Assembly: GCA_963836185.1 (NCBI GenBank)
Contig: CAWIIQ010000001.1
Span: 544,001-608,000, forward strand
Length of the DNA: 64,000 nt
Origin: Candidatus Krumholzibacteriia bacterium
GTDB lineage: Bacteria > Krumholzibacteriota > Krumholzibacteriia > Krumholzibacteriales > Krumholzibacteriaceae
Direction: 5' to 3'
The notes under the pieces are model-generated. The model saw only the letters and a list, made by a program, of their open reading frames with translations. It ran no database searches and was not told the DNA's origin. The position numbers and the translations under genes are program-made. Positions 1-9,128 of the stretch are shown in pieces. Position 1 is the stretch's first letter; every line of letters starts with the position of its first letter.

Positions 1-2
1 GT

Positions 3-929
3 CAGAACAGGGCCGGGAGTACCTCAAGTCCCGAGGAGGATTATTACTACGCTACCGTCAGCGGAGGGCAGGACAACCGGGCAGAGAGAAGATACTGTAC
101 TGTGGGAGGGGGCCAGGAAAACAGAGCGAGTGAAGAGTACGCGACAGTCGGCGGCGGCAGGCAGAACACCGCAGAGGGGAGATCGACAGTCGGGGGCGGC
201 AGCAACAACATGGCTCTTAACGGAAACAGCACCGTCGCGGGCGGTATGGACAATACAGCGCATAATGGTGCGACAGTCGGCGGCGGCAGTAATAACCTCG
301 CCAGCGGGGACGGATCGACGATTCCAGGAGGGCGAGAGAACGAAGCGACTGAAACCGGCACATTTGCCGCCGGATCGATGGCTAGAGCGAGGCACGAGGG
401 CTCGTTTGTCCTCGCGGCGAGCTGGCCGTCGAGTGGTGACGATACGATCTCTACAGGAGGGGACGAGCAGTTCGTCATCCGTGCCGACGGGGGGATCTAC
501 CTGACGAACACGAGCGAGCAGGCGACCTACAACCCCACGAGGTTAATAAATACTTCGACCGGAGCATATCTCGCCAATGACGGTACATGGCACGACTCAT
601 CTGACCGGAACCTTAAGGAGAATTTCGAGCCGGTCGACGGTGAGGAACTACTCGAGAAGATCTCCGAACTTCCCGTCACGAAGTGGAACTACAAGATCGA
701 CGATGGGAAAGCATCGCACATCGGCCCCGTAGCGCAGGACTTTTACTCGATCCTTGGCATAGGCAGCGACGACAGGACGATTGCCGCCCTTGACGAGGCA
801 GGCGTATCTCTCGCCGCGGTCCAGCAGCTCTACCTGAGATCGAAGGGCCAGGAGAGCGAGATTGAGGACCTGAGAAATGAGATCAGTGAGCTGAAGAAGC
901 TCGTCAGGACGTTGTTGGACAAAGAATAA
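3..929 (+). CDS. 5'-truncated repeat-rich protein with C-terminal intramolecular chaperone/autoprocessing domain (Peptidase S74, tail-fibre-like) and coiled coil
   Basis: Frame is open from the window edge. Tandem ~14-aa (A/S)TVGGGxxNxA repeats, then SDRNLKENF...W.YK...HIGPVAQDF (S74 signature) and a C-terminal coiled coil. Confidence 0.85.
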   Translation, partial: QNRAGSTSSPEEDYYYATVSGGQDNRAERRYCTVGGGQENRASEEYATVGGGRQNTAEGRSTVGGGSNNMALNGNSTVAGGMDNTAHNGATVGGGSNNLASGDGSTIPGGRENEATETGTFAAGSMARARHEGSFVLAASWPSSGDDTISTGGDEQFVIRADGGIYLTNTSEQATYNPTRLINTSTGAYLANDGTWHDSSDRNLKENFEPVDGEELLEKISELPVTKWNYKIDDGKASHIGPVAQDFYSILGIGSDDRTIAALDEAGVSLAAVQQLYLRSKGQESEIEDLRNEISELKKLVRTLLDKE

Positions 930-1067: not shown

Positions 1068-2351
1068 ATGAGTATCTCTTCAGGACCCTGGATTCGTTTG
1101 CTGTATCGTCTATTATTCTGCTTTCGATCTCCGCTGTCGCGCCGCGGCGGGGCTATTCTCGGGCCTGAGCAGATCGTCCAGGCGGGCGGCATGGATATTA
1201 ACATTCCCGGATACTCGGTCCCCTCGTTTGTCGACTGGAACAGTGACGGCCTGAATGATCTCGTGGTAGGAGAGGGAAGCGGGCTCACCGGGTTCGGCCT
1301 TGTGCGCGTATATCTCAACAGCGGCACTCCGGGTGATCCCGCCTTTACGGGGTATTTTCATGCGCAGTCGAACGGGTCCGTGCTGCAGAGTCCCGGCGGC
1401 GGCTGAATGGGGATCTTTCCCCGCGTGGTCGACGCGGATCTGGACGGCCGGAAGGACTTGCTCACAGGCGAGGCCGAAGGCAACATCAGGCTCTATCTCA
1501 ATATCAATACAGATACAGATCCGTCATTCGATGGCGGCACTCTGATCGAGGTCGGCCCGGCCGGCTCGAAGACAGCCATCGATGTCGGGCAGCGCACGAC
1601 CCCTGTTGTAGTCGACTGGGACAACGATGGCAGGAGGGATATCGTCGTCGGCAGCAAGGACGGCGTGGTGAGGCTCTACAGAAACACCGGCACCGATGCG
1701 GCATGGGATTTCGAAAGCGCGGAGATGATACTCGATGGAGGTATCGATCTCGTTGTACCTGCTCTTCGATCGAGCCCGCATATCGAGGACCTCGACGGCG
1801 ACGGGAAAAAGGACATTCTTGCAGGCAACACAGCGGGCCAGATCATGACCTGGTTCAATACGGGCACGGATGCCGTGCCTGTCTATAACGGATACACCCC
1901 TGTCGAGTCGGACGGTTCGGCGATAGACCTCGCTGGCGACCAGAGAGCGCGGCCTTTCGTATGCGACTGGAACGACGACGGGATCAGGGATCTGTTGATC
2001 GGGTACGGCGACGGCCTGGTACGTCTGTACATCGGCCTGTCCGACCTGACGGAGTGCGTGTGCGATACTCCTGCTTCGGTCCGGTTCCTGCAGGCCTGGC
2101 CCAATCCATTCAATCCCGTTACGACGATCGGATTCGAACTCGATGTGAGGGGGCCGGCGAGTCTTCGCATCTACGACGCTACGGGAAGACTGGTAAAGAC
2201 TCTCGCGAACGGCCTCTTCGACGCGGGGCTTCACGAGACGGTCTGGAACGGGACGGGGGACGCAGGCCAGCGGGTCTCGAGCGGGATGTATTTCTGCAGG
2301 TTCGAATCGGGGACATTCCGGCAGACCCAGAAACTCATACTGCTGAGATAG
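1068..2351 (+). CDS. FG-GAP/VCBS repeat protein with C-terminal FlgD-Ig (T9SS-like) domain; in-frame TGA at 1404-1406 read as probable selenocysteine
   Basis: ORFs 1023-1406 and 1407-2351 are in the same frame, separated only by TGA. Five DxxxDGxxD(L/I) repeats span the junction. C-terminus has PNPFNP...IYD..GRLV...SGMYF...KL. RBS GGAG lies before ATG 1068. Confidence 0.8.
1407..1440 (+). promoter_or_regulatory. Candidate bacterial SECIS element
   Basis: Stem CCGCGT (1421-1426)/ACGCGG (1432-1437) with loop GGTCG starting 20 nt after the UGA; possible lower pairing GAT/ATC. Confidence 0.7.
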
Positions 2352-2374: not shown

Positions 2375-5300
2375 TCAATATTCTTTGCTCCAGTTGATTT
2401 CCAGCCCCGTTTCCTGATCCTGATCGATGAAGCTCTCGATCTTGAAACGTTTCGTCAGCTGGTACTCGAGGTTGATCAGGAAATTGGCCGTGTTCTCCAG
2501 GCCCTGTTCGTACTTGAGCATAGTCTTTGTGTTTATGTACTTGCCTACGGTCAGGGCCGTCTCATTCGGATCCCTCGTGCTCTGCTGGAAGGTGAACATA
2601 TCCACGCCGAGTCTTTTTGACATCTCCCCTTCCAGTTTCGAGGCGCCGAATACCAGCAGGATCTCCGTGGTCCGTTCCTGAAGCAGGTTCGACTGGGAGC
2701 CATCGAGGTTGTCCATTGTCTGGCCGAAAAGGAGGAGGGACATGATATCGCTCTCCGACTTGGCCGGATTGGAGGTGAGCTCGATCTCTGGCTCGAGCGC
2801 CGTTCCAGTGAGCTTGATGAAGATGTCTATGTCGGTCACTTTCGCTTTCAGGCTCAGGTCGAACGACGGATTCATCTCGTCCTCTCCATAGAAGAAGACA
2901 CTGCCGCGCTGGATCTCGAAGTACCTTCCCATGAAAGAGAGCCTGCCCTTGGTCGGTTTAAGTTCGCCTGTTATGACAGGCCTGTCTCCCTGCTGCCTGA
3001 TATGAAGGTCGCCCTCCAGCTCGAAGTTGATCCGTTCGCTCTCGATCCGGAAGGAGTTGGGAATGGAGATCGTCACGTCGATATCCATTCCTTTGAAGCC
3101 CTCCGGTTCACCTGCGCCCAGACTGTCCGGATTGCTGTTTTCAGCCGCCGTAGTGTCGTTCGAGATACGGAAGGAGTCGGCAGCTACCCACAGGATCGCG
3201 TCGCCTTCGACATCGTGAAGACTCTCCTTCATCTCGGGAAGGCGGAGCAACGCGCGCTCGATGACGACGCTTCCCCTGACGGACGGTCTGGCAAGGTCGC
3301 CTCCGAATTCAAGGTTTATTGTCGGGGAGGCCTGAAGATCGCTCGCTACCGCGATGGACATGTCTTTCGTGTCGAGCCGGCCGCTGAAGCCGGGGTTGGC
3401 GATATCTCCGGCTGCGGTGAATTCTATATTCATGATTCCTTCAAGGTCGATATCGGGCGGAAGCAGCGGATCGAGGTCGGTGAGGGCCAGTTCCTTCGAT
3501 TTGATTTCTACAAGCATCTCAGCGGCTTCAGGATGCTCGAGCTTGAAAGGGGCAAGAGTAACATCCAGCGGGTATTCGAAGACACCGGTCAGGACATCCT
3601 GTTTCGATTTCGTAAGTGAGAGACTGGCAGACAGGCCTGAAGTACGGGATCCGGCAGCTGCTCCCGCTGCGTTCCTCGAACTCATCAGCCGTGTAAGTGC
3701 TGTATCAGATACAGCCTCGCGCGCGTACGTCCCGTCTATGGAGAGCAAGTATTTTTCAAGCTCCTCGCCCCCTGTAAATGCGCAATCGAGCTGAACGACA
3801 GCTTCGGGATCTGAGAAGGTGCCCCTGGCCGCTATCCTTCCGCTGAGCGAACCAATCAGCCTGGGACTATCGGATATAAAGGGATTAGCGTTGCCCGACA
3901 CCGGCATCCCGTCTATGACCATGTCCATCATGAGCGGGCCCTTCTTGAACGATCCATCTTTCTGAAGGGGTGGAAGGGTGCTTTCCAGTGAGATGATCGT
4001 CTTCTTCGGGCCCTCGATACCAAACGACGCCTGAACGGCATGGTCGTCTGATGACACGTTGAAGTTGATCGCGGTCCTTCTCCCGTCGACGATCGTTATC
4101 CCGCTTATCATACCATCCGCGGTAACTCTCGAAAGGCCATCGGCGCGTACGTCGACAGTCACGCTGTCGGGCCAGAGGCGGTCAGTGATCCTGATCATCT
4201 TTGGCTTCTTTGGCACAGCGATCTCGATATGAGCTTCCAGGTCGGAGGAGTCAGGGGACGCGGACCCGTTCGCCCTTATGCTCCCGATGCTTCCCTCGAG
4301 AGAGAGCCCGTCCACGATGAAGCCGCCCCCGGCGATCGTGGATATCGTGAACGGACCTGTCGATGCCAGGGTCTGCCCTGAGAGAGAAGTGAAGAAGGTG
4401 TCGGCGCGAACGGAGAAGCCGTTCCCCTGCGGCATCCTCAAAGCGATAAGTATGTTCGAGTCGATTCCGTCGGCGGCAAGCCTTACGGCCGGGCCGGTCG
4501 TATCGCCAGGTTCCGCCTGATCGGTGTAGGAAGCCCTGACGCTGTCGAACATGACGACGCTTGTCTGGAGCCCTTCGGGAAGGAAAAGGCCGGCGGTCGT
4601 TATCCCCTCGTTCCTTTCTGCAGTCCCGGAATATCGCGGGATGACCAGGCCATCGGTGGAAAGCATGCCTTCGATGCCGATTGAATACAGACGGATCGTC
4701 CTTCGTTCCCGTGATCCTGCAGTCAGCGTTCATCGTCAGGTTGATACTTCTGCCGGCGAGCCGTTCCAGCCGCCGGACGAGAAGCGAATCGGAGAGTGAC
4801 ACTGCGGCTGCGAGATCGATCATCTCTCCGGCGATGCCGCCTTCCGCCGAGATCCTCAGCCCCTCGAATACGACCAGGGCGGTATCGACGGCCATGCTGC
4901 CGCCGCTGCCTTTGATCGAGACGAGGGCGGTATCGATCCATTCCGTTCTACCTAGATCGAAACGCCCCGCGATGGAGCTTCCGCTGTCTTCCGGCGCTAT
5001 TGCCGCCTCAAAATCTATCATCATCGGGCCGAGGTCTACGATTGCGTCTCCCTTTCCCGTCAGTGGAGCGAGCAAGCGCGGGCCGGGAAGCAATGCGGAG
5101 CCGGCCGCTGTTATCTCACGGCCATTGTGCGCGATTGTTCCGCCGACACTGAGTGAGAACGGCCCATCGGCCCGCCACAGGGCCGTCATGGAATCCCATG
5201 ATGAAGAATCGGGCTGGAGCATCGTTTTCAGCGAAGCGGGAGGTTCGGGCCACTCCCCGCGAATGTCAAACCGGCCGCTGCGCGTGGAGTCGATATCCGC

Positions 5301-6935
5301 GCTTACAGAGATTTTTCCGAACATCCCTTCGGTGTGAAGGTCCCGTATAGCAATATCGCCGGTCACGCCGTCCACGCGCACATTCCCGGCGAGATAAACC
5401 GTTCCCGAATCGGGCCATGTCCCGTCAGTGCGTGAGAGTGTCACATCGATGCCGGAGGAGAGATCGGCGACGGCGCTTGTTATGATCCTTATACCGGAGG
5501 TCTCTAAAAGAAGATCTGCCGTATATGGATCGCTTCTCTCCACGGGAATAAATCCCGAGACATCTATAGAATCCAGGGAGGTTCCACCCGCTGTAAGATG
5601 TCCCGTGAGCAGCATCGGTATTCCTTCCGGTCCCCCGCACTCACCAGTTTCGAGTCTCAGTTCGGCGGAGGTCCCCTCAGGGAGTGAAACTCCGGGAAGT
5701 ATACGTGTCAGCCATGTCATGCTGTCGGCCCTCAACTGTGCGGACAGATCGGGGATACTGTCTGTCAGCGAGCCGGAGGCGCTCAACATGAGTCCGGGCA
5801 TCTCGAGAAGCAGGTCTTCGACCTCTATCAGATCATCCGCGTATGTTCCGGAGAGATGAAGAGTGTCGATATAGGAGGTACCTCTGAGATGCATGTCCGC
5901 GGACGCCGAGAAAGACGGCGACAGGGCAAGGTGACCCGTGATATTGCCGCGGGCGCCTTCCAGGACCCCGATCCCTTCGAGCGAACCTGCAAGGAAGGGG
6001 AGAGCAGCCAGTTCTTCGGTTCCCGGGGTGAGAAACTCGATCTCCAGGTCGATCGATTCGATGCGGTGGTCGACGACCTTGGCGATGCCGCCGATTGATA
6101 TAAATACGCCAGCCGCGGCCGAAGGGCCGTCAGCAGGGACGATTCGGATCGTGAATGAACTGTCCGGCTCCGTACTGCATATCATGCGGACATCCATATC
6201 GTGGGGCAGCAGGATTCTGCCGTTACCATCGAGAGATGGAGCGGCCAGATCCGCTTTCAGCCGGAAACTGTCGACGGATACGGGTGCGCTGGACCTGTCG
6301 AGGGACAGTTCCTCGATCGCTATGAACGGTTCTGACCCGGAGAGAAGGTCCAGCCCGCCGGACAGCTTCAGTCCGACCAGCTCGACTCCATCCGCGGCGA
6401 TGATCCGCCGTCCTTCGACTTCGATCCTGTCGACGGCGATCGAGGGGACGCCGGGGAGCGATCCGGCACGGGGGAATCCGCCTCCAGAGCTTTCCTGATC
6501 CATTGATCTGTCCGTAGCACCGGCGCTGTCTGCCGAGTAGGCGAAGATCTCCGTGATCGCCGGGATATCCGCGCCGATTCCGCGAAGCGCGACCTTATGG
6601 ATGTGAATATCTCTCGAGAACAGTCTGGAGATATCGATCGATACGGCAAGTTCTCCCGCCTCGGCGAGGGTGTCCGTGTAGTCTGTCCAGGCCACTCCAT
6701 CGATCTCGATGGTTCCGAGGGAGGGCCAGCGCGCCTCCGATACTGCAAACTCGCCGGGAAGTGAATGCCCCGCCCTGGATATGGCAATATCAAGCGCCTT
6801 CTCACGTACGGGCCTTACGAGCAGGAGCAGCAAGAGGATGATCACTATGGCGAACAGCGCCGCCGCCGCAATGGCGAGTATCTTAAGTGTCTTTCTTATG
6901 CCGTTCTTAACATTCATCGTCTCTATACTCATCAC
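2375..6935 (-). CDS. tamB: Translocation/assembly module TamB (frameshift near 4685)
   Basis: ORFs 4251-6935 and 2375-4666 join by one indel (...DDPSV|SIGIEGMLSTDG...). N-terminal TM anchor, C-terminal DUF490-type motifs (LTVGKYI...LEYQL...GLEINWSKEY), coupled to tamA. Confidence 0.85.
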
Positions 6936-8764
6936 ATCGGGTATCCGATAGCGAAGTGGAACGCGTATTCAGGTTCGTCCGGCTGGTAGTCAGTCAGCCT
7001 GTAACCGAAGTCGAAGCGAAGCGGGCCGACGGGAGTCATGATCCGGATTGCGGGACCTACGGCGATCTCGATATTGTCCCAGGTGAAGTCGCTGTGTGTC
7101 TGCCAGGCCTGTCCATAGTCGGCGAAGATCGCTCCATTGAATTTCCAGAAAAGCGGGAACCGCAGCTCGACGAAGCCTGTCATCATCACTTCGCCGCCGA
7201 GAGGCAGGCCGTTTTCGTCCAGCGGCCCAAGTTTTCTCCTGTTGAAGCCCCTGTGAGACGTTGATCCCCCAGCGTAGAACCGTTTGTCGGGGAGAAGCAC
7301 CAGTGATGGTGATATTGGAGTGGCCGATCCCAGGTGCAGGTTCGTAGCGAATGCGAGTTTCTTCGTAATGGGGATATGCGCCGTCCCATTGATCTCGGCG
7401 AGAAAATAGCTGCTGTTCGAAACTCCACCTTCCGGGCCGTACTGGATGCTGAACCAGGAATAAGTGCCCTTCGTCGGATTGATGCGGTCGTCAGTGCCGT
7501 CACGCACGATGCGATAAAAGAACCATGTAACCGGTCCCTTGGGATCCTCGAAGTATTCCTGCTCCGTCGTTTTGACGGTGTAGTCAGCCCTCTCGATCAC
7601 ATATCCGATCGATGATTTCATTGTGCGGGAGTGGGCAAGGCTGAGACCGACACCGATGCCGGGGGCTGTCTTGTCATAACTGTCCTCGCTGATGTCGTCT
7701 ATTCCGATTCGCAAGGTCCCTACCACCCTGGCATTGAACAGAGCCGGCCACCATGATACCCATCTGCCGGTCCTCTTGTACTGGGTGTAGGAGAGTTCGA
7801 TGCTAGAGCCGCGGCCTCTCTTAAAGAGGTTGGAATGCCTCCACCGGACCCTCGCGCTGAAGCCGTCGTCCGACCAGTATCCTCCCGCGAGTTCTATAAG
7901 GCGATGCTGCCTTTCCGAAAGCTCTACGACCATGGCAAGTGAGTCCGGCCCGGTATCCTCGAGCGAGATGCGGATCTGCCTGAAGAGCTGCAGGTTCGAG
8001 AGATTCTCTCTCGCGTCAGTGACCATCTTCGGCTTGAATCGTTCGCCCCTGTCGATGTTTATCGCGATCAGAGCCAGCTTGTTGAGATCCTCGCTCGCCC
8101 CGCTCGCACGGAAATCGTCGAAGTAATAGACCGCACCCGCCTCTATCTGGATGCGCACTCTTACCGTAGTCGTGTCTGTCATTTCCACGGATGATGACGC
8201 GGTAGCGCGGGCATGGCCTGCCTCTCTCAATATCTCCAGAACGGCTATTTCATCGGCTACAAGGTCATTGTCGGAAAAGATCGAACCAGCCTTCGTCTTC
8301 ATCTTTTCCGCGGCCGGTTCCCTGAAATGTTCAGGCAGGCCGTTGATCTGGAGGCCCGAGACTCTGACTGGAGGTCCGGGGTCGATATCAAGTGTGAGCT
8401 TGATCTCACGCTTATCCTCTTTCGCAGAGACTGACAAAGAGACCGTGCTGTATGGATATCCCCGTAAAGCGTAAAAGAGGCGTATCCTGTCGAGATCCCT
8501 TTCGAGGCTTCGCTCGTAGAGAGCGGCGTCCTTTTCCTTTAGCTCCAGGCCCTTCTCGAGCTCATCGATATATGTTTTGTCCGGGGCGGTGAGTGAAAGT
8601 GAGCTGACTTCCCAGCCCCGGTAGTTGGATATCTTGTCCCATATGGCAGTGTCATCGGCAACAACGGAGGAGGCGACAGAACCAGCGGCATGCACCTGCT
8701 CCTGCTGCGCATGAGCGGGTATGGTGATGGCCAGAAACATCAGAATGACAAGAAGGCGTTGCAT
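6932..8764 (-). CDS. tamA: TamA/BamA-family Omp85 outer membrane protein
   Basis: Signal peptide from MQRLLVIL (8764), POTRA-like repeats, RFYAGG...RGF, TPVGPLRFDFG, C-terminal FHFAIGYPM; 4-bp overlap with tamB. Confidence 0.9.
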   Translation of the reverse strand: MQRLLVILMFLAITIPAHAQQEQVHAAGSVASSVVADDTAIWDKISNYRGWEVSSLSLTAPDKTYIDELEKGLELKEKDAALYERSLERDLDRIRLFYALRGYPYSTVSLSVSAKEDKREIKLTLDIDPGPPVRVSGLQINGLPEHFREPAAEKMKTKAGSIFSDNDLVADEIAVLEILREAGHARATASSSVEMTDTTTVRVRIQIEAGAVYYFDDFRASGASEDLNKLALIAINIDRGERFKPKMVTDARENLSNLQLFRQIRISLEDTGPDSLAMVVELSERQHRLIELAGGYWSDDGFSARVRWRHSNLFKRGRGSSIELSYTQYKRTGRWVSWWPALFNARVVGTLRIGIDDISEDSYDKTAPGIGVGLSLAHSRTMKSSIGYVIERADYTVKTTEQEYFEDPKGPVTWFFYRIVRDGTDDRINPTKGTYSWFSIQYGPEGGVSNSSYFLAEINGTAHIPITKKLAFATNLHLGSATPISPSLVLLPDKRFYAGGSTSHRGFNRRKLGPLDENGLPLGGEVMMTGFVELRFPLFWKFNGAIFADYGQAWQTHSDFTWDNIEIAVGPAIRIMTPVGPLRFDFGYRLTDYQPDEPEYAFHFAIGYPM

Positions 8765-9033
8765 TGAAACAGTATACCTTATAGGGAAGGTTTGGGAAAG
8801 GCAGGAACCTCCCGCTGCCTTGCATTCACTGCCTGTGATGGTCTTGCCCGGGCGGGCGGGATAGAGTCTTTTGTTGCAGGTCCGGGCGGTTTTCACCTCC
8901 TGAAGCGATGTCAATTTCCGTTTCCCGGCCGGAAAAAATGGCGGTCCTGACGTTCCCTGTAATTTCCCGTTTTTTCCCATGTTGCTGTTGTCGTTTTCCA
9001 TCGTCCCTGTAGTAATATTTCCAATCCCGGGGC

Positions 9034-9048
9034 GGGCATGGAACTTGC
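9034..9048 (+). promoter_or_regulatory. Possible sigma54 (-24/-12) promoter
   Basis: GGGCATGGAACTTGC has GG-N10-GC spacing, about 80 nt upstream of ATG 9129. Confidence 0.45.
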
Positions 9049-9128
9049 CGAAATCCACTTCAGCCAGTGTAAATCTGTATCAATTCTCTCCCGCGTGACA
9101 GGGCAGAACGGCAGCAGAGGGGGAAGCG

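Follow-up and report, generated by a model that had tools for sequence, protein, structure and literature searches.

The window, a stretch of 64,000 nucleotides, contains near its start two apparent open reading frames that lie in the same frame and are separated by a TGA. The question raised by this locus is whether the TGA ends a gene or is read as selenocysteine (Sec) and, in the latter case, what a protein carrying such a residue might do. A frame check confirmed the proposal of the first-pass annotation that a single reading frame is interrupted here by TGA alone: positions 1068-2351 (+) form one frame of 427 codons plus TAG, which starts at ATG 1068, ends at TAG 2349-2351 and has its sole in-frame TGA at 1404-1406. 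This codon corresponds to residue 113 in the context SPGGG-U-MGIFPRVVDAD and is located, as had been claimed, in the loop between FG-GAP repeats 1 and 2 of five, before blade 2 of the predicted propeller. No purine-rich site is found upstream of ATG 1407, again in agreement with that annotation, while ATG 1068 is preceded at a distance of 9 nt by the purine-rich ribosome-binding site AGGGAG (1053-1058, +).

UGA 1404-1406 is very likely decoded as Sec, joining the two apparent pieces, which are likely to be one exported, predicted propeller-shaped protein. The evidence comes from the homologues, from a hairpin downstream of the UGA and from the selenocysteine machinery of the genome.

Cysteine and probable selenocysteine at the TGA site

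Matches to the protein were found in 33 of 208 genomes of the phylum. Among the best 40 rows aligning at the site, the codon is TGA in 14, TGC or TGT (Cys) in 17 and TGA followed by Cys in 8, and one row is frameshifted; lower rows, which aligned to other blades, were dropped. Cys or TGA at the aligned position is the pattern by which the first-pass annotation had proposed to check the Sec reading, and position 113 is in fact Cys or Sec in 39/39 rows of the 39-row alignment. Among the full-length matches the TGA itself is shared with 7 other genomes, and in 8/8 pairs dN is far below dS both before and after the TGA (dN/dS about 0.1-0.25). The full-length relatives, together with Cys or TGA at the site, support the claim of one protein of about 427 residues with the motif G-U-M-G, encoded by a single gene at 1068-2351 (+).

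Of the metagenome loci (best 80 of at least 316 confirmed), TGA stands at the site or just before it in 34 and Cys in 21; the site is not covered in 6, and 19 show neither. Motifs among these 80 include U-C, U-C-C, U-G-C and U-G-A. The site occurs across the family as C, U, UC, UCC and UGC, and the lone Sec emphasised in the first-pass annotation is one form among these: the window's protein does have a single Sec, no Cys within the Sec loop and no CxxU/UxxC motif, but this form is not the only one. Among 145 sequences of at least 42% identity the residue is C in 124, U in 16, S in 3, Y in 1 and D in 1 (Cys/Sec in 140/145). This set may count genes twice and scores U-C genes under C; its number for Sec is too low, since genes of this kind are truncated in protein collections. 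Three entries (P0004, P0136 and P0141) begin right after the site, gene callers having listed the downstream piece alone. The codon following the UGA is ATG or GTG in only 6/17 lone-U genes.

The Sec loop differs in Cys content from the equivalent loops of the other blades, where any Cys is found in only 3-10 of 161-171 members. A second Cys/Sec is present in the Sec loop of 65/174 members and a third in 13/174, as in C-x4-C-x2-C and U-C-C, at positions that vary (-10, -7, -6, -2 and -1 from the proline). A single Cys/Sec is found in the loop of 109/174 members, including the window's gene, and since most members have only one, a reactive dyad is unnecessary.

Cys and U-C paralogues coexist in four genomes (G037, G049, G050 and G054); no close paralogue was found in the gene's own genome, and no relatives were found in viral contigs. 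In G050 (L095, contig C4) two Cys genes of the family are in tandem about 8 kb from selA, in G054 (L096, contig C31) a Cys gene and a U-C gene are about 3 kb apart, and in G037 a Cys gene lies about 8 kb from selA. Two degenerate copies were observed: L053 (G019) lacks blades 4-5 and shifts frame immediately downstream of the TGA, and in L054 (G018) blade 1 is joined to blade 5 out of frame and the site is missing. In the distant propellers L143 and L164 this loop reads C-V-C-P-G-P-G, and further downstream lies a sequence of the TCCAC type.

As for the machinery, the genome (3.5 Mb, 92.5% complete) encodes selA over the cut-off, a tRNA-Sec (selC) scoring 71 bits with a TCA anticodon, and a Sec-type selD with its own in-frame TGA. 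The search for selA, selB, selC and selD, which the first-pass annotation had named as a check, thus recovered all but an intact selB, the latter being present as several frameshifted pieces (C1:47922-49803). These pieces are probably assembly errors: indel errors are suspected because selB and a GTPase gene beside a tRNA-Thr/Tyr/Gly/Thr cluster (likely tuf, C1:71107-71980) are broken into frames in the same way. In the window, 4251-6935 and 2375-4666 (TamB-like) also appear to be one gene split by a frameshift. Public sequencing runs matched at most 12% of the gene's words and gave no contig reaching the TGA or the 5' indels, so they provide no evidence either way. Of 32 relatives with the family, all 32 have selA over the cut-off and 28 have selB over it, 3/3 for selB in the genus. 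Presence of the machinery does not discriminate Sec forms, selA being found in 32/32 genomes, those with Cys forms included.

A genome-wide change of the code, with TGA read as Trp or Gly, was rejected: 1326/2276 long frames end with TGA, the tRNA-Trp has a CCA anticodon, and the only TCA tRNA listed is tRNA-Sec.

A SECIS-like hairpin and its history

The two hairpins described in the first-pass annotation were found where it had placed them. The hairpin at 1421-1437 (+) is composed of the stem CCGCGT (1421-1426) and ACGCGG (1432-1437) and of the loop GGTCG (1427-1431), which starts 20 nt after the UGA, and a competing hairpin at 1409-1422 (+) has the arms GGGGA (1409-1413) and TCCCC (1418-1422). 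The published bSECIS consensus comprises a loop of 3-9 nt, a stem of 4-16 bp, a G at loop position 1-2, a spacing of 16-37 nt and an energy of at most -7.5 kcal/mol (PMC13188914). The hairpin of the window is within these limits, with a loop of 5, a stem of 6, GG at the start of the loop, a spacing of 20 nt and -11.8 kcal/mol for 1415-1445. When longer stretches are folded, the competing hairpin enters the lowest-energy fold. Folded as a single sequence, the hairpin does not stand out from what chance would give (z of -0.74, +0.07 and -0.05 in longer stretches and -1.56 for 1415-1445), and against synonymous recoding it reaches p 0.064. The hairpin is significant across the family only, not from the window sequence alone.

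For the comparison across genes we used the loop and spacing limits of PMC13188914 together with a stricter rule of our own, requiring unbroken Watson-Crick pairs in the stem. A perfect stem of at least 5 bp with a G-loop is found in 39/55 TGA genes versus 2/38 Cys genes (one duplicate removed), and a stem of at least 6 bp in 35/55 versus 0/38; the Fisher p of 1e-10 for the association of stem and TGA is overstated, kin not being independent. Significance at p <0.05 versus synonymous recoding is reached by 23/55 TGA genes and 0/38 Cys genes. In the gene's own genome the background of such stems is 116/1326 at the TGA ends of long frames and 296/3255 at Cys codons. The strict test is failed by 16/55 TGA genes, but these misses are weak evidence against the hairpin because the rule also misses the genome's own selD.

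The same 6-bp stem is kept in 7/9 of the closest TGA genes, with variant stems in the other 2. Three hairpin sequences are found in the family: CCGCGT/ACGCGG in the window's clade, CCGCGC/GCGCGG, and TCCAC/GTGGA in distant U-C genes. In all three the loop lies 17-23 nt after the UGA, although sequence and codon register differ. The stems of 22 distant U-C genes contain 18 double changes, a value as high being reached by 0/500 shuffles; slid controls pair in 25-43% of cells versus 82% at the true stem, although the +2 slide reaches 16 double changes. The contrast between TGA and Cys genes bears out the expectation, stated as a check in the first-pass annotation, that the hairpin should go with TGA-bearing homologues. 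The competing hairpin is not conserved: folding predicts it also in the Cys gene L071, and it is absent from the other TGA genes of the clade that were folded.

The history of the site was traced with a quick tree only (87 rows, site and hairpin masked, root not inferred), in which at least 12 changes are needed among the four states C, U, UC and UG. In this tree the window's gene belongs to a group of 8 U genes in all and 1 Cys gene (SH-aLRT 97). The nested Cys gene, L071, has kept the R-V-V-D-A-D of the clade and lost the stem, a pattern that fits a reversion from Sec to Cys. A change from W to A in the window's clade builds the 3' arm of the stem, and L071 retains that amino-acid scar. The family displays SECIS elements arising and decaying inside coding sequence.

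Probable export, predicted fold and surroundings of the protein

Export through a FlgD/T9SS-like tail had been proposed in the first-pass annotation, and the profile matches agree with such a tail. The C-terminal FlgD-Ig/T9SS type A sorting domain (2097-2348, +) matches PF13860 (38 bits) and passes the sorting-domain profiles PF18962 (27.3, cut-off 27) and TIGR04183 (32.5, cut-off 23). The genome has matches over the cut-off to SprA, PorU and six of the PorV family (for example at G000:C2:331131-335548 and C1:2036249-2040659), and dozens of its proteins carry the same C-terminal tail. The GldN profile has no match in the genome, but its control was silent too. According to the abstract of a 2022 review (PMC11611037), the T9SS is limited to Bacteroidetes. 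One PorV-family match, G000:C1:1297332, also contains a TGA, near the protein end and with no Cys context, where a frameshift is likelier than Sec.

Relatives start with stretches that, judged by eye, resemble signal peptides, but the N-terminus of the window's protein as assembled is not a signal peptide, and its hydrophobic stretch lies in the neighbouring frame. With respect to 4/4 aligned relatives, the signal-peptide region (1068-1148, +) is shorter by a single nt around 1075 and by a further 2 nt around 1145, so that about 23 codons, from about 1075 to 1146, are in another frame. An assembly error is the likely cause of these gaps, and a real change a less likely one.

The body of the protein (1149-2042, +) is composed of five FG-GAP-type repeats (Pfam PF13517/PF01839) with DxDxDG-type loops, followed by the FlgD/T9SS tail. 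The AlphaFold2 model obtained from the 39-row alignment (pLDDT 93.8, pTM 0.91) has five four-stranded blades; confidence is lowest in two segments, namely the Sec loop and the loop of blade 1 that bears E69. The propeller and the five repeats of the first-pass annotation stand; alignment, model and structural matches indicate that the repeats close into a complete propeller of five blades, not into the seven of the integrin type. The top structural matches are five-bladed as well (4pvi, 4mlg, 3k1u and 3qed; Z 17.8, rmsd 3.2-3.5 A over 242-257 residues, about 10% identity), and a Foldseek search of the PDB gave only poor fits to larger propellers. An Atlas search with the homologue P0023 returned only generic FG-GAP/T9SS clusters.

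The matched GH43, GH62 and GH32 enzymes resemble the predicted model in blade number and overall fold. They use catalytic Asp/Glu, whereas the window's family has Arg, Ser and Cys/Sec before the strand-A prolines, and the window's protein, at about 10% identity, matches no GH profile. The FG-GAP repeat type and the DxDxDG loops are shared with integrin alpha, ITFG2, CRTAC1 (9etn) and UmbA4 (9oee), which fit the window's model poorly as a whole (TM-score by query at most 0.51, rmsd >7). In contrast to these, the window's protein has only five repeats, a Cys/Sec loop and no ASPIC/UnbV domain: no Pfam hit to the latter was found after the propeller at E 0.01, the tail being of the FlgD/T9SS type.

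From repeat register and general propeller topology, the Sec loop should precede strand A and lie on the face opposite the DxDxDG loops. The positions matching the Sec site in blades 3-5 hold arginines, conserved in 35-36/39 rows. In detail, subfamily conservation over 39 rows is 39 for R119, 36 for R176, 35 for R234, 35 for R293 and 36 for R295 (1422-1952, +); upstream of these, S50 is conserved in 39, and E69, in the blade-1 loop, is Glu in 36. In a wider alignment of 36 rows the values are 23 for R234, 23 for R295, 20 for R293, 12 for R119 and 12 for R176, and at the E69 position 24 rows have E or Q, while a third of the rows have Tyr or another residue. Judging from secondary structure and repeat register, the conserved arginines would ring the Sec loop on the same face.

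Other members of the family have dockerin-like tails, no tail at all, or are modules of giant surface proteins whose further domains are of the Ig, cadherin, MBG, RHS or peptidase type. A rhodanese domain is fused in 1/39 scanned homologues, P0042, which has Ser at the site and Cys elsewhere in the loop. Six Cys homologues (P0031, P0032, P0056, P0062, P0125 and P0150) have in common, at the N-terminus, a domain about 150 residues long that contains several Cys and His residues and gives no Pfam hit.

No recurring neighbour gene was found among 6 frames of the window and 67/106 frames from 16 loci, the remaining frames, mostly family members or short, having been left out. The gene directly upstream, whose 3' end occupies window 1-929 (+), encodes adhesin-like repeats rich in GG together with a Peptidase_S74 chaperone domain and is not kept beside the selenoprotein gene in relatives. 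On the other side, TamB and Omp85/POTRA (TamA-like) genes at 2375-9058 (-) converge on the selenoprotein gene. In one genome only (G015, L104:4248-5471), a CdhD-domain gene and a 4Fe-4S gene are found near the homologue; the CdhD domain is also carried by HgcA.

Possible functions of a putative surface selenoprotein

The mechanism that we propose has three steps. Very probably, SelB would bind the hairpin 20 nt downstream and deliver Sec-tRNA to the UGA. The signal peptide and the C-terminal sorting domain would then, quite probably, route the protein to the surface by a T9SS-like path, with the DxDxDG loops binding calcium on one face. On the opposite face Sec113 would stand on a glycine-rich loop beside the arginine ring, and for this third step, in which the closeness of Sec to the arginines is taken from the repeat register, the chances appear evenly balanced. 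The role proposed for the arginines is to stabilise the selenolate and to bind an anionic substrate such as thiosulfate, polysulfide, a charged disulfide or a similar oxyanion. The selenolate would attack an S-S, S-O or O-O bond, and a thiol or sulfide from outside would resolve the adduct, unless the member has a neighbouring Cys that could do so. Taken as a whole, a surface selenolate nucleophile serving redox or sulfur transfer on an anionic substrate is a reading that we would accept and doubt in equal measure.

This reading is favoured because the chalcogen is near-invariant, nearby Cys residues have been gained repeatedly and switches to Sec have been repeated. In its favour count the Cys/Sec of 140/145 close members, the extra Cys found in the Sec loop only, the arginines and the one rhodanese fusion (P0042). 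Against it count the 109/174 members with no second Cys in the loop, the lack of a conserved neighbour able to re-reduce the protein, the weaker arginines of distant members (R119 and R176 each in 12/36), the many Cys homologues that are modules of giant adhesin-like proteins, and the occurrence of the rhodanese fusion in only 1/39, with Ser at the site.

The same Sec gene could serve other functions. Its loop might be a site for soft metals or metalloids (Hg, Cu, As, W/Mo oxyanions), acting as a surface trap or uptake helper and not as a catalyst, which we consider unlikely though worth keeping in view. Up to three Cys/Sec residues in the loop (13/174 members) would suit such a site, an arginine-rich pocket would suit oxyanions, and CU/UC selenoproteins are described in metal and transport systems (10.1101/2022.07.06.499078). 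The single Cys/Sec of 109/174 members and the varying positions of the extra Cys argue against it, as does the scan of 16 loci, which revealed no recurrent neighbour of the transporter or metal-resistance type.

Rather unlikely too is an adhesin or matrix module that would bind an anionic glycan or protein in its pocket and attach either this ligand or another subunit by a covalent Se-S, Se-Se or ester bond. Cys forms are found as modules of proteins as long as 6,800 residues, several of which also have domains of the Ig-like, cadherin, MBG, RHS or dockerin type, and a lone reactive residue fits an intermolecular bond. Thioester adhesins use Cys-Gln, which the Glu/Gln at the E69 position in 24/36 wide rows may echo. 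However, within the subfamily that position is Glu in 36/39 rows, a third of the wide rows have Tyr or another residue there, and Sec-Cys dyads would favour an internal bond.

We hold it improbable that Sec or Cys is only structural or regulatory, serving to clamp the loop or to act as a redox switch within a lectin-like propeller that depends on calcium. Such a role agrees with the five-bladed carbohydrate-active proteins among the top structural matches and with the Ser, Tyr or Asp of 5/145 close members, but most members have no partner Cys, the tree needs at least 12 state changes, and the costly upkeep of a SECIS would be hard to explain for a passive residue. Finally, it is very improbable that the TGA is a true stop marking a split gene or a pseudogene, or that it stems from a sequencing error: the frameshifts in selB, the likely tuf gene and the 5' end of the window's gene, the TGA ends of long frames in this genome, the gene callers' downstream pieces and the degenerate copies of G018 and G019 would agree with it, but the same TGA in 7 other genomes, aligned with Cys and tied to the hairpin, is usually not followed by a start codon, and a closed propeller would be divided behind its first blade if the gene were split.

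Compared with known systems, the gene is similar to SelB/bSECIS selenoprotein genes (PMC13188914) in its in-frame UGA, its small-loop hairpin starting with G in the range of 16-37 nt downstream, its Cys homologues and the presence of selA, selB, selC and selD in the lineage; it differs in that the protein is likely exported and has no CxxU/UxxC. From thioredoxin-type CxxU/UxxC oxidoreductases it differs by its all-beta propeller (AlphaFold2) and by the lack of Cys in the loop. With the CU/UC selenoproteins SaoL, SaoC and HgcA (10.1101/2022.07.06.499078) its family shares the vicinal Sec-Cys of many members and the cutting of genes at UGA by annotation, and SaoC has a signal peptide; no sequence relation to them was found through NCBIfam, and the window's gene has a lone Sec.

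FG-GAP, VCBS or propeller families are absent from the 119 families of Table 1 of a 2026 selenoprotein catalogue (PMC13188914), and no selenoprotein model of NCBIfam release 20 matches the family (searched with the window's protein and with a set of 8). The accessible parts of PMC12013277 and 10.1101/2022.07.06.499078 do not mention FG-GAP, VCBS or propeller. Our literature search, whose scope did not extend to the family table of BSepDB (PMC13326102), which could bear on novelty, found no description of an FG-GAP/VCBS selenoprotein family. The gene is very likely a selenoprotein gene, decoded in the standard way, and belongs to a widespread bacterial family that is uncatalogued as far as checked; what would be new to the catalogue is the predicted fold, the probable cell-surface location and the motif.

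Somewhat short of even chances, we tentatively propose a new class of extracellular selenoenzyme of sediment bacteria, built on a five-bladed FG-GAP propeller, displayed by a T9SS-like path outside Bacteroidota and performing surface sulfur or redox chemistry on an anionic substrate. Its loop would have switched repeatedly among Cys, Sec, Sec-Cys and Sec-Gly-Cys, the coding sequence being rewritten each time to set a SECIS about 20 nt after the UGA, and the lone-Sec form would mark position 113 as the essential reactive atom. If true, many annotations of genes cut in two would be corrected, and the known selenoproteins would gain a widespread family. One and the same site exists in nature as Cys, Sec and Sec-Cys, in some cases as paralogues in a single genome, so that the contribution of selenium outside the cell could be tested directly.
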